Of a stretch of DNA of 64,000 nt, positions 25,530 through 35,126 are shown in pieces. The notes beneath the pieces are model-generated. The model saw nothing but the letters and a program-made list of their open reading frames with translations. It was not told where the DNA came from and made no database searches. Location: assembly GCA_963752475.1 (NCBI GenBank), contig CAVVYR010000006.1:512001-576000 (forward strand), written 5' to 3'. Both the position numbers and the translations under genes were made by a program. Origin of the DNA: an uncultured Chloroflexia bacterium. Its GTDB lineage: Bacteria > Chloroflexota > Limnocylindria > Limnocylindrales > CSP1-4. Position 1 is the stretch's first letter. Each line of letters begins with the position of its first letter.

Positions 25530-26432
25530 ATGCCCCACCATCCCGAGACCATCGACGGCCTGCAGGCTGCCTTTGCCGAGCGCGACTACGTGGCCGACCG
25601 CGCGCTCGTGACCTCCGTCTTCCTCGGCCTCCAGCTGGGCCGGCCGCTGCTCCTCGAGGGCGAGGCGGGCGTGGGCAAGACCGAGCTGGCCAAGGTCCTG
25701 GCCTCGACGCTCGGGACCCGGCTCATCCGGCTGCAGTGCTACGAAGGCCTCGACGTCAACACCGCGGTCTACGAGTGGAACTACCCGCGCCAGATGCTGG
25801 AGATCCGGCTGCTGGAAGCACAAGGCAAGCTCGGCGACGCGCGCACACACGACATCTTCAGCGAGGAGTTCCTGCTCAAGCGGCCGCTGCTCCAGGCGCT
25901 GGAGGCGGCGGACGGCCAGGCGCCGGTGCTGCTCATCGACGAGATCGACCGCGCCGACGAGGAGTTCGAGGCCTTCCTGCTGGAGCTACTCTCCGACTTC
26001 CAGGTGACCGTGCCGGAGGTGGGCACCGTGCGCGCGGAGCATCCGCCGCGCGTGATCCTCACCTCCAACCGCACGCGCGAGGTCCACGATGCGCTCAAGC
26101 GACGCTGCCTCTATCACTGGATCGACTACCCCGATGCCGCACGCGAGTATGAGATCGTGCTGGCTCGTGTGCCCGACACCCCGGAGCGTCTGGCGGAGGC
26201 CATCGTGACCTTCGTGCAGCGGCTTCGGGCGGGCCAGCTGACCAAGGTGCCGGGCGTGGCCGAGACCATCGACTGGGCTTCCGCCTTGCTGGCGCTCGGC
26301 GCGGGTCGGCTGACCGCGGAGCTCGTCGACGATACGTTGGGCGTGGTGCTCAAGTACGAGGAGGACGTGCAGGCCATCCGTGGCGCCACGGCCGCCCGCT
26401 ACCTGGAGGAGCCGGCGGGTGGCGCCGGCTAG
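25530..26432 (+). CDS. MoxR AAA+ ATPase, CoxD-like
   Basis: GEAGVGKT, QCYEG, LIDEIDRAD and ALKRRC motifs. Confidence 0.9.
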   Translation: MPHHPETIDGLQAAFAERDYVADRALVTSVFLGLQLGRPLLLEGEAGVGKTELAKVLASTLGTRLIRLQCYEGLDVNTAVYEWNYPRQMLEIRLLEAQGKLGDARTHDIFSEEFLLKRPLLQALEAADGQAPVLLIDEIDRADEEFEAFLLELLSDFQVTVPEVGTVRAEHPPRVILTSNRTREVHDALKRRCLYHWIDYPDAAREYEIVLARVPDTPERLAEAIVTFVQRLRAGQLTKVPGVAETIDWASALLALGAGRLTAELVDDTLGVVLKYEEDVQAIRGATAARYLEEPAGGAG

Positions 26433-27747
26433 CAGGACGTCCGCGCCCGATAGCGGTCCCGGGATCTCCGGCAGCGCCTTCTTCTGGAACGCACTGCTGT
26501 TCACGCGTGCCCTGCGCGCCGAAGGCTTGACCACGGACCTCGGTGCCGCCATGGACTACTCGCGGGCGCTGACGCTCATCGACATCGGTGATCGCGAGCA
26601 GGTCCGAGCCGCGGGTTCCTCGATCTTCGTCCGTCGCCGCGACGAGGTCGACATCTATGACGGGGTCTTCGACCGCTTCTGGACCCGCTACGAGCTGGCC
26701 ATCGAGCCGCCCGACTTCGATCTGGAGGTGGATCTCGCGGGCCGGGAGCACGAACAAGGCGCACAGGTCGCGGCCGAGGGCGGAGCTGACGATGGCGACG
26801 TCGCGGCCGGCGCGACCGAGGACGAGGGTGACGCGTCGGAGGCCGATGGCGCCGATCTCAAGGACGAGGACGGCGCTTCCCGGTCCTGGAGTGAGCGCGA
26901 ACGCTTCCTCAGGAAGCCCTTCGACCGCATGAGCCCCGATGAGCTGCGTGATGCCGAGCGGCTCGTGGACCAGGTCCGCCCGCGTCTCGAGCAGCGGCGT
27001 TCCCGGCGCCAGGTGCTCCACCGCCACGGTCGGCTGCTGGCAGCACGGCAGATGTTCCGGGCCAACCTCCAGAACGGCGGCGACCTCGTGCAGTGGCTCT
27101 GGCGTCGGCCGGCCATGCGTCCGCGCTCGATCACCGTCATCTGTGACATCTCCGGCTCGATGGAGCGGCACTCGCGCCTGCTCATGCGTTTCGCCATGGC
27201 CTTGCATCGGATGTCCAACGTGCGCACGGAGGCCTTCGTCTTCGGTACCCACCTGTCGCGCGTGACGCACGAGCTCACGGGTCGCGACCCGGATGTCGCG
27301 CTTGACAAGGTCTCGGCGGCGGTCTCCGACTGGTCCGGTGGTACCCGCATCGGTGCCTCGCTCGAGCAGTTCAACCGCGACTGGGCCCGGCGCACGCTGC
27401 GCTCCAGCGGCGTGGTCATCGTCGTCAGCGACGGTTGGGATCGTGGCGATCCCGCTCTCGTACGTCGCGAGATGGCACGCCTGCAGCGCTCGTGCCACCG
27501 CCTCATCTGGCTCGATCCGCTCGCGGCCACCGAGTACTACCAGCCGCTCGCGGGGGGCATGGCCGCGGCCTACCCGTTCATCGACGACCTGGTCGCGGTG
27601 CACGACCTGGCCTCGCTCTTCCGGCTGGGCGAGCTGTTGGCCGAGATGGCCGAGCATCGCAGCCGCCGGCCCGACCGCAACGGCGTGCCCCGTCTCCACC
27701 GTGATCTGCGGACAGAGGTCGCCCTGCGGCCGGGGGTCGTGGCATGA
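26419..27747 (+). CDS. VWA-domain protein, CoxE-like
   Basis: MIDAS motif DISGSM, WSGGTRIG and SDGWDRGD. GTG 26419 follows GGAGGA. Confidence 0.88.
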   Translation: MAPASRTSAPDSGPGISGSAFFWNALLFTRALRAEGLTTDLGAAMDYSRALTLIDIGDREQVRAAGSSIFVRRRDEVDIYDGVFDRFWTRYELAIEPPDFDLEVDLAGREHEQGAQVAAEGGADDGDVAAGATEDEGDASEADGADLKDEDGASRSWSERERFLRKPFDRMSPDELRDAERLVDQVRPRLEQRRSRRQVLHRHGRLLAARQMFRANLQNGGDLVQWLWRRPAMRPRSITVICDISGSMERHSRLLMRFAMALHRMSNVRTEAFVFGTHLSRVTHELTGRDPDVALDKVSAAVSDWSGGTRIGASLEQFNRDWARRTLRSSGVVIVVSDGWDRGDPALVRREMARLQRSCHRLIWLDPLAATEYYQPLAGGMAAAYPFIDDLVAVHDLASLFRLGELLAEMAEHRSRRPDRNGVPRLHRDLRTEVALRPGVVA

Positions 27748-28850
27748 GGGAACTGCTCCCGACGCTCGACGCCTGGACGGCCCAAGGGCTGGCGGTCGCG
27801 CGCGCGGTGGTGATCCGGACCTTCGGCTCTTCGCCCCGACGCGAGGGGGCGACGATGCTGCGCGCCTCGGACGGACGCATCAGCGGCTCGGTCAGCGGCG
27901 GCTGCGTAGAGGGTGCGACAGCCGAGCACATGGAGGCGGCGGCCGCTTCGGGCCAGCAGCGTGTCGTGCGCTTCGGCATCAGCGATAGCGATGCCTGGGA
28001 TGTGGGCCTCGCGTGCGGCGGCACCATCGATGTGTTGGTGCAGCCGGCGGTGCCGGCCGCCGCCGTCGAGGCCGTTCGCGCCACGCTCGTGGACCGTCAT
28101 GCCGGTCGAGCACTGGTGACGACCTTGCCCCACGACTCCCCCGGTGCGGAGCTCGGCGGCTCCGAGCTGGGCCCGATGGCAGCCCCCTCCGATCCGCTCA
28201 TCGTGCACGAGGACGGCTCGCTCAGCGGCTCGCTGGGTGAGGCGGAAGTAGATGCGTCGGTCGTCACACTCGCGACCGACGCGATCTCGAGTGGCACATC
28301 GATCACGACCGAGTCGGCCGGCCGTCAGTTGTTCATCGAGGCCTTCCCGGTACGCCCGCGCCTGCTGGTCGTGGGTGCGGTCGAGGTGGCCGTCGCGTTG
28401 GTGCGACTGGGTGGCGAGCTGGGCTACGAGACGGTCCTCATCGACGGCCGCCCGGCGTTCGCGACGCGCGAGCGCTTCCCCGATGTCGACCACCTCGTCA
28501 TCGGCTGGCCCGACGAGGTCGCGGATGAGCTGCAGCTCGGTCGCGGTGATGCGGTCGCCGTGCTCAGCCACGATCCCAAGTTCGACGATCCGGCCATCAC
28601 CGTGGCGCTCGAGCGTGAGTGTCGCTATGTCGGCGCCATCGGCTCCCGCAAGACGCAGCGAGCACGCCGGGCGCGACTCGCCGCCGCGGGCCTCGACGAG
28701 GAGCAGCTGGCCCGCCTGCGCGGGCCCATCGGGCTCGACCTCGGGGGTCGGGAGCCGGCTGAGACGGCGCTGGCAATCATGTCCGAGATCGTGGCCGCCC
28801 GGCATGGCGCCAGCGGGGGCTCGCTGGTCGATAAGCCACCCCGCCGCTGA
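27744..28850 (+). CDS. XdhC/CoxF/CoxI molybdenum-cofactor insertion chaperone
   Basis: GSVSGGCVE, GLACGG, YVGAIGS and PIGLDLG...AETA motifs. Confidence 0.9.
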   Translation: MRELLPTLDAWTAQGLAVARAVVIRTFGSSPRREGATMLRASDGRISGSVSGGCVEGATAEHMEAAAASGQQRVVRFGISDSDAWDVGLACGGTIDVLVQPAVPAAAVEAVRATLVDRHAGRALVTTLPHDSPGAELGGSELGPMAAPSDPLIVHEDGSLSGSLGEAEVDASVVTLATDAISSGTSITTESAGRQLFIEAFPVRPRLLVVGAVEVAVALVRLGGELGYETVLIDGRPAFATRERFPDVDHLVIGWPDEVADELQLGRGDAVAVLSHDPKFDDPAITVALERECRYVGAIGSRKTQRARRARLAAAGLDEEQLARLRGPIGLDLGGREPAETALAIMSEIVAARHGASGGSLVDKPPRR

Positions 28851-28934: not shown

Positions 28935-29456
28935 GTGTCCGCCGACTCGCTACGGGCCCAGATCCGCGAAGTCCCCGACTTCCCCAAGCCCGGGATCCTC
29001 TTCTACGACATCACCACCCTGCTCAATGACGCCGAGGCTTTCCGCGAGTCCATCGAGCTCATGAACGAGCCCTTCAAGGACGAGAAGATCGACATCGTCG
29101 TGGGCATGGAGTCACGTGGCTTCATCTTCAGCGCGCCGATGGCCTTGCACCTAGGCGCCGGCTTCGTGCCGGTCCGCAAGCTGGGCAAGCTGCCGGCGGA
29201 GACGATCAGCGTCGAGTACGAGCTCGAGTACGGCACCAATACCCTCGAAGTCCACCGCGATGCCATCCGCCCCAACCAGCGGGTGCTCATCGTCGACGAC
29301 CTGCTGGCCACCGGCGGCACGGTCCTGGGCACGATCGAGCTGGTCAAGCAGCTGAAGGGCGAGGTCGTCGGCCTGTCCTTCCTCGTCGAGCTCGGCTTCC
29401 TGAAGGGTCGCGAGCGCCTCGATGGCTACCCGATCAACAGCGTCATCGGGTACTGA
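28935..29456 (+). CDS. apt: Adenine phosphoribosyltransferase
   Basis: PDFPKPGI, ESRGF, RKLGKLP and VDDLLATGGT motifs. Confidence 0.95.
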   Translation: MSADSLRAQIREVPDFPKPGILFYDITTLLNDAEAFRESIELMNEPFKDEKIDIVVGMESRGFIFSAPMALHLGAGFVPVRKLGKLPAETISVEYELEYGTNTLEVHRDAIRPNQRVLIVDDLLATGGTVLGTIELVKQLKGEVVGLSFLVELGFLKGRERLDGYPINSVIGY

Positions 29457-30789
29457 CCCGCAGGATCCCCAGGAACCCGCGGAGGTTGCCGAGGCACCGC
29501 CGGAGGGGGAGGGTGACCCCGACGAAGCCGTTCACGACCCTGACCGTCGGGCGTTCTTCTTCCAGTTCGGCAAGCAGGCTGCGTCCGCGGTCGGGCAGGT
29601 GGCCGGCATGGCGGATGTCGTGGGCCGGACCTCCAGTGCCCTGGCCGGTGAGTTGCTCGGCCTCGACGAGCCCGATGCGGAGGGTGAGAAGCCGCAGTTC
29701 GCACGCTCTGGTGCGGCCGCCGATCCTGTCACGAGCGCAGCCGAGCCCGCAGCCGAGAACAGCTACCGCAGTGCCTACCGCCTGGCCGACGAGGGACTGG
29801 TCATCCTCGATCAGCGGCGGATCCCCGAAGCGCTCGAGGAGGTCGCGGCCAAGCGCGGCAGCGACGTGGCCTACTACCTGCGGCTGGGCGTGGCCCGCGG
29901 CGGTCCCCTCATGGCGCAGCTCGCGGCCTACGGACTCTGGCTCACCGCTGCCGAACGCGCGGACAAGCCTGCCGAGCAGCGTCGCGTAGAGCTGCGTCGC
30001 ACCGAGCAGACGCTCATCGACGCACGACCCTCGTCGCGTCCGCTAGCCGGTGCGGTCGAGCGCATGCGCACGTTCACGGCGCGCTTCGGTGACTCGGCGA
30101 GCGGCATCGAGGTAGCCGAGGCCATGCGCGTCGAGGCCGACGCCATCGCGGCCGAGGCGACCGCGGCCGAGGCCAGGCTGGCGAGCCGGCTCGAGGCGGC
30201 GCTGCCACGACCCGACGGTCGTCCGCTGACGCTGCTGCTCCATGGCGGCCAGGGGTCGCTCGTGGCGGGGCAGCTGGGTGCCACGCTCACCGCCCTCAAC
30301 CGTATGCGCGACGCCGGCCGTGAGCTGCGGGTCTTCCTCGCCGAAGGACGGCCCTTCATGGACGGGGCGCGGCTCGCGAGTTGGGAGCTGCGCCAGTCGG
30401 GGCTCGAGCACAAGATCGTGGCCGATGCCGCCGCTGCCTGGCTCCTGGACCGGATGCCGTTCGACGCGGTGGTCGTGCGTGGCGAGTGGCAAGCGGCCGA
30501 TGGCGACACCTCGGCGCTGGTGGGTGCCCGCGCACTCGCTCAGCTCGCCGCGGCCGCCCGCGGCGCTGACGCCAGCCCGCGCTTCGTGACCGTCACACCG
30601 TCGACGGCCATCGACGCCGACACCGCGGATGGGAACGCCATCCCCTCCGAACTCCGACCGTCGCGTGAGCTCTCCGCCTACCTCTCTGACACGCCCATCC
30701 GCACCTCCGACGCGCTCGTTCCCGCGGCGGACGTCATCCCCTCCGGGCTCATCGATGTGTGCGTCACGGATGCGGAGCCGATGGCCTGA
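29422..30789 (+). CDS. MtnA/eIF-2B-family protein with a degenerate active site (probable pseudo-enzyme)
   Basis: ILDQRRIP, RGGP, RP, EGRP..GARLASWEL and GDT are recognisable; catalytic motifs are altered. Start uncertain. Confidence 0.75.
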   Translation: MATRSTASSGTDPQDPQEPAEVAEAPPEGEGDPDEAVHDPDRRAFFFQFGKQAASAVGQVAGMADVVGRTSSALAGELLGLDEPDAEGEKPQFARSGAAADPVTSAAEPAAENSYRSAYRLADEGLVILDQRRIPEALEEVAAKRGSDVAYYLRLGVARGGPLMAQLAAYGLWLTAAERADKPAEQRRVELRRTEQTLIDARPSSRPLAGAVERMRTFTARFGDSASGIEVAEAMRVEADAIAAEATAAEARLASRLEAALPRPDGRPLTLLLHGGQGSLVAGQLGATLTALNRMRDAGRELRVFLAEGRPFMDGARLASWELRQSGLEHKIVADAAAAWLLDRMPFDAVVVRGEWQAADGDTSALVGARALAQLAAAARGADASPRFVTVTPSTAIDADTADGNAIPSELRPSRELSAYLSDTPIRTSDALVPAADVIPSGLIDVCVTDAEPMA

Positions 30790-31661
30790 TGGCGAGTGTG
30801 ACGCGCGACAGCGTGGCCGGGGAGCGTCAGCTCTCGGTGCGCAGCACCCGGGACCGGCGGTTGCTCCATCGCTTCCTGGGCCAGGACCGCGTCTTCGCGG
30901 CCTATGCCATCGCAGACACCGACGACAGCGAGTTCGGCCGCACGCGCTTCGGTGTCGCCTTCGAGGACGACGAGCCCGTGGCCGTGGTCATGGAGTACCG
31001 CGGGATCTCGCCGCAGCCCATCTTCGCCATGGGGGACCCGGCCGGCGTGAGCGCGATCCTCCGCGACATCGTGCGGCCTCGCCTCGCCTACCTCGGGGCC
31101 AAGGCGGACGTCTTCGGTGGCGTGCGCGACCACTATCGAGCGGACGCACCGGCGCCCATGGTCCGCATGGTGGTGGAGGCGGGCACCTTCCGACCCGTGG
31201 TCGGCGATGCCGTGCGCCTGGACCAGGGCGATGCCGGCCACCTCAACCGCCTGTACCAGCTGGGGTTCAACGCCTACCTGCCCGAACAGGCCGTCGCGGC
31301 CGGGGTCTACTACGGGATCCGTCGTGGCACCCGCCTCATCGCCGCTGCCGGCACGCACGTCATCAGCCCCCAGTGGGGCGTGGCCGCGGTGGGCAACGTC
31401 TACACCCATCGCGAGTACCGCGGGCAAGGCCTGGGCAAGGTCGTGACCAGCGCGGTCACGGCCGACCTGTTGCGTGAGTGCGACACGGTGGTGCTCAACG
31501 TGCGTGCCGACAACCCGCCGGCGCTGGCGCTCTACCGGTCGCTCGGCTACCGCGAACACACCGAGTTCGAGGAGCGCCTGGTCCACCGCGAAACGTCGCT
31601 GTGGGATAGCATCGTCGGGCCCGTCCGGGCCTTCGTTTCCGATCTCAGGAGGAATGGATGA
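30789..31661 (+). CDS. GNAT acetyltransferase (FR47-like C-terminal domain)
   Basis: VYTHREYRGQGLG and NPPALALYRSLGY motifs; TGATG coupling to the upstream gene. Confidence 0.88.
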   Translation: MASVTRDSVAGERQLSVRSTRDRRLLHRFLGQDRVFAAYAIADTDDSEFGRTRFGVAFEDDEPVAVVMEYRGISPQPIFAMGDPAGVSAILRDIVRPRLAYLGAKADVFGGVRDHYRADAPAPMVRMVVEAGTFRPVVGDAVRLDQGDAGHLNRLYQLGFNAYLPEQAVAAGVYYGIRRGTRLIAAAGTHVISPQWGVAAVGNVYTHREYRGQGLGKVVTSAVTADLLRECDTVVLNVRADNPPALALYRSLGYREHTEFEERLVHRETSLWDSIVGPVRAFVSDLRRNG

Positions 31662-32992
31662 CCGATACCCCCGCGCCCCAGAACCCGATGCAGACCACCT
31701 CCGGTGACGCCGATAACGGCCAGACCGCGTCCTATCCCGCCCACGATGTCGCTGACTTCGGTCTCGTGGAAGAAGGTGTTCGTCGTATCGAGTGGGCGGA
31801 ACGGGAGATGCCGGTCCTGCGCCTGATCCGCGAGCGCTTCGAGGACGAGAAGCCGCTCGACGGCCTGCGCATCGCTGCCTGCCTGCACGTCACCACCGAG
31901 ACCGCCAACCTCATGCGTACGCTCAAGGCCGGTGGTGCCGACGTCACGCTGGTGGCCTCCAACCCGTTGTCGACCAAGGACGACGTCGCAGCCGCGTTGG
32001 TCGCCGAGTACGACATCAGCTGCTACGCGGTCCGTGGTGAGGACAACGAGACCTACTACGAGCACCTCAACGCGGCCGCGGACACGCACCCGCACATCAC
32101 CATGGATGACGGCTGCGATCTCGTCGCACTGTTGCACAAGGAGCGCCCCGACCAGCTGTCGGAGATCATCGCCGGCACCGAGGAGACGACCACCGGCGTC
32201 ATCCGCCTCAAGGCCATGGCCAACGACGATGCGCTCGAGTTCCCGGTCCTGGCCGTCAACGAGGCCCAGACCAAGCACCTCTTCGACAACCGCTACGGCA
32301 CCGGCCAGTCCACCATCGACGGCATCCTGCGCGCGACGAACTACCTGCTCGCGGGGCGCCGCTGCGTCGTGGCCGGCTACGGCTGGGTGGGTCGTGGCAT
32401 CGCCAACCGCCTCAGCGGCATGGGTGCCCGTGTCACGATCGTGGAGGTCGACCCGGTCCCGGCCGTGGAGGCCCTGATGGACGGCCACCAGGTCATGACC
32501 GCCGGCGACGCCGCGGCGTGGGGCGAGATCTTCGTCACCGCTACCGGCAACCTCAACGTCTTCCGTGAAGAGCACTTTCGCGTCATGCAGGACGGGGCCG
32601 TGCTCAGCAACTCCGGTCACTTCGACGCGGAGCTCGAGCTGGCGGCCCTCGAGCGGCTGGCCGAAGGTCACGTCCGCGAGGCCCGCGAGAACGTCAGGGA
32701 GTACGACCTCGGCGAGAAGAAGCTGTACCTGCTGGCCGAAGGCCGCCTGGTCAACCTCGGCGCAGCCGAGGGCCATCCAGCGGCGGTCATGGACATGAGC
32801 TTCGCCGGCCAGGCGTTGGCGGCCGAGTACGTCGCTGCCAACCACGCCTCGCTGGGCAACGAGGTCCACGTCCTGCCCCAAGAGCTCGACAAGCGGATCG
32901 CACGGCTCAAGCTGGAGTCGCGCGGGGTCTTCATCGAGGACATGACGCCGGAGCAGACGGAGTACTACAACTCCTGGAAGCAGGGCACCTGA
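31658..32992 (+). CDS. ahcY: S-adenosylhomocysteine hydrolase
   Basis: CLHVT, DDGCD, EETTTG, KHLFDNRYG, GYGWVGRG and GRLVNL..GHP motifs. Confidence 0.97.
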   Translation: MTDTPAPQNPMQTTSGDADNGQTASYPAHDVADFGLVEEGVRRIEWAEREMPVLRLIRERFEDEKPLDGLRIAACLHVTTETANLMRTLKAGGADVTLVASNPLSTKDDVAAALVAEYDISCYAVRGEDNETYYEHLNAAADTHPHITMDDGCDLVALLHKERPDQLSEIIAGTEETTTGVIRLKAMANDDALEFPVLAVNEAQTKHLFDNRYGTGQSTIDGILRATNYLLAGRRCVVAGYGWVGRGIANRLSGMGARVTIVEVDPVPAVEALMDGHQVMTAGDAAAWGEIFVTATGNLNVFREEHFRVMQDGAVLSNSGHFDAELELAALERLAEGHVREARENVREYDLGEKKLYLLAEGRLVNLGAAEGHPAAVMDMSFAGQALAAEYVAANHASLGNEVHVLPQELDKRIARLKLESRGVFIEDMTPEQTEYYNSWKQGT

Positions 32993-33055: not shown

Positions 33056-33784
33056 CTAGAAGGGCCGCAGCAGTCGGGTCATCGACCCACCGCCGGCGAC
33101 GCGCTTGGTCTTCTCGAGCAGTTCGGCGCCACCGGCCCACTCGGCTTGGTGCTCGCGCTTGAGGCGCTTCTCCTCGGCCACCATCGTGGTCCACAGCTTG
33201 GGGTAGTGGTCGCGCAGGTACTCGCTCGAGCGGTAGCGCGCCATGAGCTCGCTGACGAAGGCCGCGTAGCGTGTGACCGGGTCGGTGTCCGCGGCCAGCT
33301 TCTCGAACTCGTGCTGGTAGCCGGCGGCGGCCCGGAAGCGACCGAAGAAGCCGCCGACGCTGTGGGCACCGGTGTCCCATCCCTGGGAGTGTCCTCCACG
33401 TCGCAGCAGGGGAGCGGGTGACTCGAAGACGCAGATGACCTCGCCGCCGACGCGGTCTGCTCGGAGCTTGCCGCCGAAGGAGAGGTAGCGGTTGGCCACG
33501 CCCTTGCGGTCGCTGACGGTGATGCGTCCCCAGGAGAACGTCGTCTCGCGTGGCAGCCGGCTGGCATAGGTCAACGTCTCGCGCACGCCGAACCCGCGAG
33601 CTCCGGTGACCCAGTACTCGACGAGCTCAGGGTCGTAGTGCTTGAACGTGGGCTTGGCCCGGATGGCGACGAGCAGGAACGCCGGACCCGGACGGTCGGG
33701 CAGGTCGGGATCGGCAAGGAACCCCCAGTCGGCCAGCAGCTCCGACGCGAGCCGCGGATCTATGGAGGACGGGAGATCGGCCAT
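33056..33784 (-). CDS. Hypothetical protein
   Basis: 242-aa ORF filling the gap between ahcY and metK, with protein-like composition; no motif recognised. Confidence 0.7.
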   Translation of the reverse strand: MADLPSSIDPRLASELLADWGFLADPDLPDRPGPAFLLVAIRAKPTFKHYDPELVEYWVTGARGFGVRETLTYASRLPRETTFSWGRITVSDRKGVANRYLSFGGKLRADRVGGEVICVFESPAPLLRRGGHSQGWDTGAHSVGGFFGRFRAAAGYQHEFEKLAADTDPVTRYAAFVSELMARYRSSEYLRDHYPKLWTTMVAEEKRLKREHQAEWAGGAELLEKTKRVAGGGSMTRLLRPF

Positions 33785-33944: not shown

Positions 33945-35126
33945 ATGACGAGCAACGCCGGTTCCGGCACCTACCTCTTCACCTCGGAGTCGGTCACCGA
34001 AGGCCATCCCGACAAGATGTGCGACCAGATCTCGGACGCCATCCTCGATGCCATCATCGAGGACACGCGGGAGCACAAGTTCCCGCATCCGCGCGTGGCC
34101 GTGGAGACCGCCACCACGACGGGCCTGGTGCTGGTCCTGGGCGAGGTCTCGACCGACGGCTATGTCGAGTTCCAGTCCATCGTGCGCGACACCGTTCGCG
34201 ACATCGGCTACACACGCTCGGAGCTGGGCTTCGACCACGAGACCTGCGGCACGATGGTCTCGGTCAAGGAGCAGTCTGGCGACATCGCCATGGGCGTGGA
34301 CGGGGCCGAGCTCGGGGCCGGCGACCAGGGCATGATGTTCGGCTTCGCCTGCCGCGAGACGCCGGAGCTGATGCCGTTGCCCATCGCGCTGGCCCACCGC
34401 ATGTCGCGCCGCCTGTCCGAGGTGCGCAAGAGCAACCAGCTGCACTACCTGCGACCCGACGGCAAGACGCAGGTCACCGTCGAGTACGAGGATGGGAAGC
34501 CCGCACGCGTGGGCACGGTCGTGGTCTCCACCCAGCACGACCCCGATATCCGCACCGAACGCCTGCGCGACGACGTCATCGAGGCGGTCATCCTGCCCAG
34601 CATCGAGCCAGAGCTGCGCTCGACCGATCCGCTGATGCACGTCAACCCCACCGGTCGCTTCGTCATCGGCGGACCCATGGGTGACGCCGGGCTCACCGGT
34701 CGCAAGATCATCGTCGATACCTACGGCGGCTACGCCCGTCACGGCGGCGGTGCCTTCAGCGGCAAGGATCCGACGAAGGTCGACCGCTCGGCCGCGTACG
34801 CCGCACGCTGGGTGGCCAAGAACGTGGTCGCCGCCGGCCTCGCCGATCGTTTCGAGGTCGAGCTGGCCTACGGCATCGGCATCCCCGAGCCGGTCAGCAT
34901 CTCGGTCGAATCGTTTGGCACCGGCGTCATCGACGACGCCGAGATCCAGACGCTCATCGAGCGTCACTTCGACCTGCGTCCGGGCGGCATCATCAACGCC
35001 CTCGACCTGTGGCGGCCGATCTACCAGCAGACCGCGGCCTATGGCCACTTCGGTCGCGAGGATCTGGACCTGCCCTGGGAGCGCACGGACAAGGCCCAGC
35101 TGCTCAAGGACGACGCCGACATCTAG
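33945..35126 (+). CDS. metK: S-adenosylmethionine synthetase
   Basis: [19 protein letters not shown] and GGGAFSGKD motifs. Confidence 0.97.

Follow-up and report, generated by a model that had tools for sequence, protein, structure and literature searches.

A probable pseudoenzyme of the MtnA family encoded in a conserved apt-ahcY gene block of Chloroflexota

Methylthioribose-1-phosphate (MTR-1-P) isomerase (MtnA), ribose-1,5-bisphosphate (R15P) isomerase and eukaryotic initiation factor eIF2B's alpha, beta and delta subunits share one protein fold (PF01008). The catalytic residues of Bacillus subtilis MtnA are reportedly Cys160 and Asp240, as Tamura et al. are said to have assigned them in 2008. 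In R15P isomerase, according to a study of that enzyme (PMC5789824), Cys and Asp form the catalytic pair, a Cys-to-Ser mutant has no activity, a Cys-to-Ala change abolishes substrate binding as well, Asn214 and Lys215 touch the sugar, and the ligands of the 1-phosphate are two Arg residues, Gln166 and Lys215. The same study gives the catalytic Cys of eIF2B-alpha as Ala in human and Gly in S. pombe, and PMC8187479 describes reuse of the ancestral pocket for sugar phosphates that regulate eIF2B assembly. A catalytically dead enzyme relative kept as a working subunit is described, in PMC6221367, for the trypanosome S-adenosylmethionine (SAM) decarboxylase (AdoMetDC) prozyme. The gene considered here lies in a 64,000-nucleotide stretch of DNA from an uncultured Chloroflexia bacterium (contig CAVVYR010000006.1, positions 512,001 to 576,000), called the window below. 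Its product, an MtnA-family protein termed X, is encoded in an apt-X-GNAT-ahcY gene block. Because the catalytic residues are gone, suppliers of MTR-1-P were not found in the genome, the gene is under purifying selection and a remodelled pocket is fixed in its clade, X is read (probability about 0.72) as a pseudoenzyme that arose at this locus from an MtnA with an N-terminal extension and is kept for a non-catalytic role that is likely tied to the extension.

The substitutions in X were read from a residue-by-residue alignment to the solved MtnAs 1t9k, 6a34 and 2yrf. As a reference for residue invariance, 39 canonical MtnAs that came out of the same search were aligned alongside, and the clade counts refer to 36 sequences of the clade to which the window's protein belongs. 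The alignment confirmed three replacements that had been noticed in a first-pass annotation of this DNA, namely LHGGQG for THCNAG, TSALVG for TANKIG and MDG for LQG (Table 1). The catalytic Cys is replaced by Gly275, with Gly in 36/36 clade members versus Cys in 39/39 canonical sequences. The Asn-Lys pair is replaced by Ala365-Leu366; at the Lys position, Lys was found in 0/34 clade members (L 17, V 11, P 3, T 2, I 1) versus 39/39. The 1-phosphate-binding Gln of LQG has become Asp314, with Asp or Glu in 34/36 clade members versus Gln in 39/39. The same annotation had taken the change of GADRI to RGEWQ as a further loss; the replacement is there, but the catalytic Asp is not simply lost, since its position holds the conservative Glu355 (Glu in 26 and Asp in 9 of 35 clade members, versus Asp in 39/39). 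The Arg of GADR is Trp356, and Trp is present in 32/35 clade members. All these sites are invariant or nearly so in the canonical MtnAs, and the changes in X go far beyond chance.

Three Arg residues are kept in X: R159 (RGAP; 27/36 clade members), R202 (RPT; 33/36) and R310 (ETRP; most members). His274 is kept in 34/36. In the most divergent degenerate members, the Arg residues are gone too. The observation that the phosphate-binding Arg motifs remain therefore holds for R159 and R202, but phosphate binding is not simply retained, because two of the four side chains that contact the 1-phosphate are lost (Gln to Asp, Lys to Leu). We infer that the pocket of X carries about three fewer positive charges and would no longer suit an anionic sugar phosphate.

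The assignment to the family was examined with hidden Markov models (HMMs) and structure prediction. X scored 172 bits against the MtnA equivalog model TIGR00512 (cut-off 279), 177 bits against NF004326 (cut-off 271) and 55 bits against the R15P isomerase model TIGR00511 (cut-off 314), and thus reached none of the three cut-offs. The AlphaFold2 model of X has a mean predicted local distance difference test score (pLDDT) of 75, with most of the core above 85; its best Foldseek match is the MtnA structure 2yvk (TMt 0.84, E 3.8e-23). Solved MtnAs are also the closest by sequence (E 4e-31 to 1t9k). With the catalytic residues replaced and the scores below the MtnA cut-offs, X is predicted to be a non-isomerase member of the MtnA/eIF2B fold, as had been proposed.

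At least 120 close homologs of X (43-78% identity) were identified; of those given a name at their source, most are labelled methylthioribose-1-phosphate isomerase. A scan of species genomes yielded 79 loci, 40 of which come from Chloroflexota metagenome-assembled genomes (six record titles read Candidatus Limnocylindrales or Limnocylindria). The order apt-X-GNAT-ahcY is present in 40/40 of these, mostly followed by metK. X is one unbroken match in 35/40 loci and is split in L032, L036, L037, L058 and L061; these five come from long-read assemblies whose neighbouring genes are likewise broken, and they were omitted from the motif counts. A profile search of 1.84 billion representatives revealed the N-terminal motif of X also on proteins with every catalytic motif, one such cluster being named Chloroflexota. 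From the window's own family (f1), 27 long copies were fetched, and 27/27 lie in the apt-X-GNAT-ahcY order.

Motifs were tabulated for 26 of these family copies (L143 was omitted because of a run-on open reading frame, ORF): 13 are intact (THCNTGPL / GADR[IV]A / ANK) and 13 degenerate. In the degenerate copies the replacements vary by lineage (TLGSTG, TAGSTG, LHGPVG), and many retain GADR. Orthologs in sister genera do keep Cys, Asp and Lys, which is one half of an outcome that the first-pass annotation had named as refuting its proposal; the other half, neutral decay, was not found in the window's copy. Short canonical MtnAs without the extension occur elsewhere in some family genomes (L117, L118, L144-L147) and form a separate clade. 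In genus g5, X is deleted from an otherwise preserved apt-GNAT-ahcY-metK block in 5/5 genomes examined. As judged by sequence and gene order, X is the positional ortholog of a predicted lineage-specific, N-terminally extended MtnA of the apt-X-GNAT-ahcY-metK block. Further copies outside this arrangement were observed in two genomes. Genome G221 carries, besides an intact X, a very divergent degenerate copy with an RR extension (L142, G221:C24:6600-17700; end branch 1.5), and G260, which has two sub-cut-off copies, carries an extra-block MtnA-family copy (L134, G260:C101:30700-41700). A sub-cut-off MtnA-like gene (220 bits) adjoins a methylthioadenosine (MTA) phosphorylase (MTAP) gene in divergent orientation at G334:C3:293964-296171, and in G353 MTAP and an MtnA above the cut-off are adjacent on the same strand.

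The metabolic context of X was examined in its own genome, which is 88.8% complete with 5.8% contamination. X is the one PF01008 gene in this genome, and a search for a separate canonical mtnA found none. MTAP had no match above the cut-off, only purine nucleoside phosphorylase (PNP)-type phosphorylases being present, and MtnK was not found, so that no route to MTR-1-P was detected in the genome at this completeness. There was also no match above the cut-off for MtnB (class II aldolase and epimerase homologs are present) and none for a RuBisCO-like protein. MTA/S-adenosylhomocysteine (SAH) nucleosidase (MtnN) is encoded, and MTA is probably split into methylthioribose (MTR) and adenine, with adenine salvaged by apt. 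A 274-aa PNP-like protein is encoded three times (G000 C8:215847-216362, C24:17470-17985 and C23:12809-13324) with identical or nearly identical scores (163 bits versus the PNP cut-off of 218); these copies could be genuine repeats, or redundancy that arose in assembly or binning.

The distribution of MTAP was counted over 151 genomes of the family; the counts are descriptive, since kin are not independent, and the HMM cut-off used to sort the genomes is an imperfect proxy for intactness, the degenerate X of G187 scoring 290 bits. MTAP was detected in 77 of the 91 genomes with an MtnA above the cut-off (including the unpublished genome G387), in 12 of the 48 with sub-cut-off MtnA-family copies only, and in 2 of the 12 with no copy. 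A canonical short MtnA is encoded elsewhere in 3/5 other sampled genomes of the window's genus, without an MTAP match.

Selection on X was estimated as the ratio of nonsynonymous to synonymous substitution rates (dN/dS) for 16 chosen pairs. The values were 0.08-0.39 (median 0.22) for degenerate X (13 pairs) and 0.16-0.19 for intact X (3 pairs); over all 16 pairs they were 0.055-0.46 for the GNAT gene, 0-0.36 for apt and 0.04-0.42 for ahcY. A single pair (L030/L033), with high values for all genes, accounts for the upper ends of the GNAT gene and apt ranges, and the ahcY maximum stems from a fragment of 46 codons. The proposal that X is kept by selection is borne out by dN/dS of about 0.2 together with the fixed Gly at the Cys site, and because the same pocket replacements recur across the 36 clade members, the pocket of X is under constraint and not decaying. 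It is very improbable that X is slowly decaying as a neutral relic left over from a lost MTAP-dependent salvage route. Such a course would fit the loss of catalytic motifs in several lineages, the deletion in genus g5, the failure to find MTAP in 36/48 genomes with sub-cut-off copies only and the position of X as the fastest-evolving gene of the block; dN/dS is nevertheless not near 1, the frame is intact in all loci but the five split ones described above, and the same replacements are fixed throughout a clade in which identity has fallen to 78% for apt and 68% for ahcY.

The same constraint could be expected if X were still an enzyme, acting through other residues (e.g. Glu355, His274) or on another substrate, e.g. 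unphosphorylated MTR, which the MtnN encoded in the genome would release. An acid at the Asp position in 35/35 clade members, together with the frequencies of His274 and Trp356, indicates a pocket that is constrained and not random, and dN/dS agrees with this. Continued catalysis is nonetheless unlikely, given that the thiol base is absent in 36/36, that Cys mutants of a homologous isomerase are inactive (PMC5789824), that the other degenerate lineages share no common new catalytic set, and that no downstream salvage enzymes were found in the genome.

Two trees were used to examine how often catalysis was lost. The quick X tree had 72 rows, after L005, L016, L031 and L143 (ORF run-on) and L021, L034 and L134 (fragments) had been dropped, and it kept the columns of the catalytic-motif trait itself. 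In this tree all X with the extension form one clade (support 100), within which the 45 degenerate rows group together on long branches (support 94). The flanking genes apt, GNAT and ahcY gave a second tree, built from 51/66 loci (15 with incomplete flanks were dropped), which requires at least four changes between the intact and degenerate states. This flanking-gene tree puts the degenerate-X locus of G305, with support 100, next to the two intact loci of the same genus, and grouping the X of G305 with the two intact X of that genus gave a better likelihood than the free X tree (lnL +15.7, p-AU 0.80). A single origin of the degenerate state was considered and rejected on these two results. 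The single degenerate group is read as a long-branch effect, because the flanking-gene tree and the better likelihood of the constrained grouping both speak for this. Within this genus (g3), G088, G218 and G415 have intact X alone, G305 has sub-cut-off X alone, with degenerate motifs, and G429 has sub-cut-off X plus a canonical copy, as judged by HMM score only. We conclude that catalysis was, on the phylogenetic evidence, probably lost more than once.

The acidic N-terminal extension reported in the first-pass annotation as about 115 aa was found to span about 118 aa (22 D+E versus 8 K+R, pI 4.1), and alignments to structures in the Protein Data Bank (PDB) begin at aa 119-124. It consists of a variable, acidic, Pro-rich stretch, a conserved helix motif and a linker. 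The motif reads D-x-x-R-R-x-F-F and continues as a helix in which the small residues Ala, Gly and Ser abound; conservation is 90% or higher at D39, R42, R43, F45, F46, A53, A61, L78, L79 and G80, and the motif occurs in intact and degenerate X alike. The GC content at third codon positions is 0.86 in the motif, equal to that of the core, and 0.63 in codons 1-38 versus 0.86 in the rest of the gene. X starts at ATG 29422, and no further in-frame ATG, GTG or TTG occurs until codon 59; since ATG 29422 is the sole in-frame canonical start upstream of the motif, the acidic leader is also translated. That close relatives agree in their first 11 residues is probably a side effect of the overlap, in a different frame, with the conserved C-terminal end of apt. 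A purine run in the acidic leader (GGAGGGGGAGGG, positions 29502-29513) resembles a strong ribosome-binding site, with no in-frame start between it and codon 59. The motif profile, run against the organism's own genome, matched X alone (E 1.9e-21; next best 0.41), and the motif is treated as a putative module specific to X.

The motif raises the question of twin-arginine translocation (Tat), in which case the extension would be a working Tat signal and X would be exported or held at the membrane, a role compatible with the pseudoenzyme reading. In the alignments, R-R-x-F-F is followed by about 13 uncharged, Ala/Gly-rich residues and then by a small-x-small site, the RR pair lies 9-17 residues from the first possible start in some orthologs, TatC is encoded in the genome (198 bits), and the language-model look-alikes of aa 36-84 include Tat-signal families (all <0.9, leads only). 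A Tat function is nonetheless considered unlikely. The Pfam model TAT_signal (PF10518) matched 0/11 sequences at E up to 10, the mean hydropathy of the h-like stretch is just 0.82, 41 acidic or Pro-rich residues precede the RR pair in the window's X, the motif profile matches X alone in its genome, and an intact X would be an MTR-1-P isomerase with a cytoplasmic substrate. Furthermore, signal peptides are usually far less conserved in sequence than this motif.

The GNAT protein encoded between X and ahcY has 290 aa in nearly every close relative; its 25 orthologs have 83% mean column identity and an invariant R-G-Q-G-L-x-K motif. Its model (pLDDT only 70.6) matched in Foldseek 7pk1 (GLYAT, TMq 0.58), 1sqh, 2c27 (MshD) and 7q3a, and resembles tandem GNATs such as glycine N-acyltransferase, mycothiol synthase, glucosamine and histidine N-acetyltransferases and MAB_4324. 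It is identified as a tandem GNAT by its two GNAT-like halves, of which the C-terminal one carries the acyl-CoA motif. The tandem GNATs matched by the model act on small molecules, which argues against the suggestion that this protein acetylates other proteins. The GNAT occurs with intact X, with degenerate X and in the absence of X, and its function is therefore independent of the pseudoenzyme state of X. A complex prediction for X and the GNAT gave a score of 0.02 (mark 0.32) and counts neither for nor against binding.

These data bear on the first-pass proposal that X senses a sugar phosphate or a SAM by-product and thereby controls the GNAT, which would acetylate SAM-cycle enzymes. The stop/start overlaps that couple X, the GNAT gene and ahcY, the adjacency of X and the GNAT gene at every locus counted above, the retention of the three Arg residues in most clade members and the binding of sugar phosphates in the ancestral pocket of eIF2B-alpha (PMC8187479) would fit it. 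The proposal is improbable, however. The specific X-GNAT link did not hold, since the GNAT gene adjoins X just as closely in other genera whose X is catalytically intact and persists in all five genomes from which X is deleted, and the best structural matches of the GNAT are small-molecule N-acyltransferases. Sensing of a sugar 1-phosphate fares no better: no MTAP or MtnK that would make MTR-1-P was found in the genome, the phosphate site is stripped of positive charge (Lys to Leu, Arg to Trp), with a negative side chain gained (Gln to Asp), and the deeper degenerate members have lost the Arg residues too.

The reading of X as a pseudoenzyme descended from an extended MtnA implies the following course. 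The ancestor would have been an active MtnA with the conserved N-terminal extension, encoded in the apt-X-GNAT-ahcY-metK block. A second function, carried by the N-terminal helix motif as a docking element, may already have been present in the active ancestors. In the lineage of the window, MTR-1-P isomerisation would have been lost with the thiol base, Asn-Lys and Gln, and the MtnA body would now serve as a folded, probably dimeric, scaffold.

Several points weigh against this reading. X evolves faster than its neighbours (40-66% identity across loci versus 78-96% for apt), and its dN/dS is about twice that of the GNAT gene in most pairs; the dN/dS values themselves come from a simple Nei-Gojobori count over tblastn-aligned regions, disordered linkers included. 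The absence of X from genus g5 indicates that X is dispensable in some backgrounds, and the series from intact through degenerate to deleted could be read as slow loss. The lack of a canonical MtnA in the genome could be an assembly gap, because three of the five other sampled genus members have one and the genome is incomplete. X may also have other chemistry or bind another ligand, as Glu355, His274 and three Arg residues remain, and no partner or ligand of X was identified.

If the pseudoenzyme reading is nonetheless extended, family f1 might hold a living series of an enzyme-to-eIF2B-like transition, in which an MtnA gained a docking module and a non-catalytic job and then repeatedly lost catalysis (at least twice, at least four times on the flanking-gene tree) while the protein was kept. 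The rebuilt pocket, less positive by about three charges, could then recognise a SAM-cycle metabolite that is cationic or zwitterionic (SAM, SAH, MTA, adenine or homocysteine) and signal via the N-terminal module. This wider picture is put forward only tentatively.

The features of the locus are listed in Table 1. The ORF overlaps noted earlier were confirmed: the last 35 nt of apt are the start of X, the X stop and GNAT start share TGATG, and the GNAT stop and ahcY start share ATGA. A scan for promoters and terminators gave 0 promoter-like and 2 terminator-like sites versus 1.3 expected and was uninformative.

Table 1. Coordinates of the genes and protein features of the apt-X-GNAT-ahcY locus in the window.
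Feature	Position	Strand	Remarks
apt, adenine phosphoribosyltransferase	28935..29456	+	NF002636 238 bits, TIGR01090 230 bits, both above cut-off; stop 29454-29456
X, catalytically degenerate MtnA-family protein, 455 aa	29422..30789	+	PF01008 98 bits
N-terminal extension of X, aa 1-118	29422..29775	+	
Conserved motif of the extension, aa 39-82	29536..29667	+	
RGGP, aa 159-162	29896..29907	+	equivalent of RGAP
LHGGQG, aa 273-278	30238..30255	+	in place of THCNAG
MDG, aa 313-315	30358..30366	+	in place of LQG
RGEWQ, aa 353-357	30478..30492	+	in place of GADRI
TSALVG, aa 363-368	30508..30525	+	in place of TANKIG
Tandem-GNAT acetyltransferase, 290 aa	30789..31661	+	ATG at 30789; FR47, Acetyltransf_1 and Acetyltransf_7 in C-terminal half (aa 176-271)
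ahcY, adenosylhomocysteinase	31658..32992	+	TIGR00936 601 bits, above cut-off
metK, SAM synthetase, downstream block member	33945..35126	+	three S-AdoMet_synt domains; score well above cut-off; in the block at related loci

Directly upstream of apt, genes for a MoxR-type AAA ATPase, a VWA/CoxE protein and XdhC, whose ends overlap (25530-28850, + strand), form a triad that is syntenic with the apt-X block in most of the 40 related loci. The interval between ahcY and metK contains a 242-aa ORF (33056-33784, - strand) that matched nothing in Pfam or NCBIfam. It is kept at the same spot in 26/40 related loci, and the family's other genera yielded no copy of it; its look-alikes in a protein atlas (0.89-0.91) include the ADP-ribosyltransferase families Arr-ms and Tox-ART-HYD1, with few shared features and as a lead only.

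RNA-library contigs from two studies match the GNAT gene at 30999-31461 and 31364-31659. They show 0-2 differences over 151-228 nt, and the organism or a very near relative was therefore present at the sampled sites, DNA carry-over being possible. The RNA contigs sit mostly on apt, the GNAT gene and ahcY, and the covered shares of the stretch are small (0.05-0.12). X itself is touched only by a pair of short contigs from a single run, with about 91-92% identity, which have no bearing on its expression.

In the literature covered, which leaves most subscription journals outside, no description of X was found, in keeping with the first-pass view of it as undescribed, and nothing was found on methionine salvage in Limnocylindria, a twin-arginine MTR-1-P isomerase or an MtnA pseudoenzyme. 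Pseudoenzymes of the MtnA/R15P-isomerase fold are known from eukaryotic eIF2B, whose enzymatic ancestors are billions of years removed. Here, active-motif, degenerate and deleted states of X share an operon position within one bacterial family, and once within one genus. Because intact, degenerate and deleted states coexist in one family, the order of events (extension, then catalytic loss and pocket remodelling) would be readable directly and testable with paired proteins. Annotation of such proteins as methylthioribose-1-phosphate isomerase would wrongly credit the organisms with a methionine-salvage step.

X may be compared with five known systems. Its likeness to Tat signal peptides lies in R-R-x-F-F, the uncharged Ala/Gly stretch and the small-x-small site; it differs in the missing PF10518 match, low hydrophobicity, long acidic leader, strong conservation and uniqueness in the genome. 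R15P isomerase (3a11, 5yfj) belongs to the same superfamily, uses a Cys/Asp pair as MtnA does, and provides the mutant structures that define residue roles, but X has 18% identity to it and lacks the Cys, and R15P isomerases are archaeal hexamers activated by AMP. With MtnA (2yvk and 2yrf of B. subtilis, 1t9k of T. maritima, 6a34 of P. horikoshii) X shares the fold, the closest sequence, positional orthology to the predicted-active MtnAs of sister genera and three Arg residues; it differs in lacking the catalytic Cys, Asn-Lys and Gln, in having Glu for Asp, in scoring below the equivalog cut-offs, in its 118-aa extension and in that the pathway partners MTAP, MtnK and MtnB were not found in its genome. 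The AdoMetDC prozyme is, like X, a dead enzyme relative in SAM/polyamine metabolism, but it activates a live paralog, and no live MtnA was found in the X genome. eIF2B's alpha, beta and delta subunits differ from X, which is bacterial and nearer to MtnA: eIF2B chains rank 26 and below in Foldseek (16-17% identity), X has no eIF2 or eIF2B-gamma/epsilon partners, the substitutions are not the same, and the loss in X is recent enough that its family still has active-motif orthologs. What the two have in common is a PF01008 fold without the catalytic Cys, and X would have taken the same route from enzyme to non-enzyme as eIF2B.

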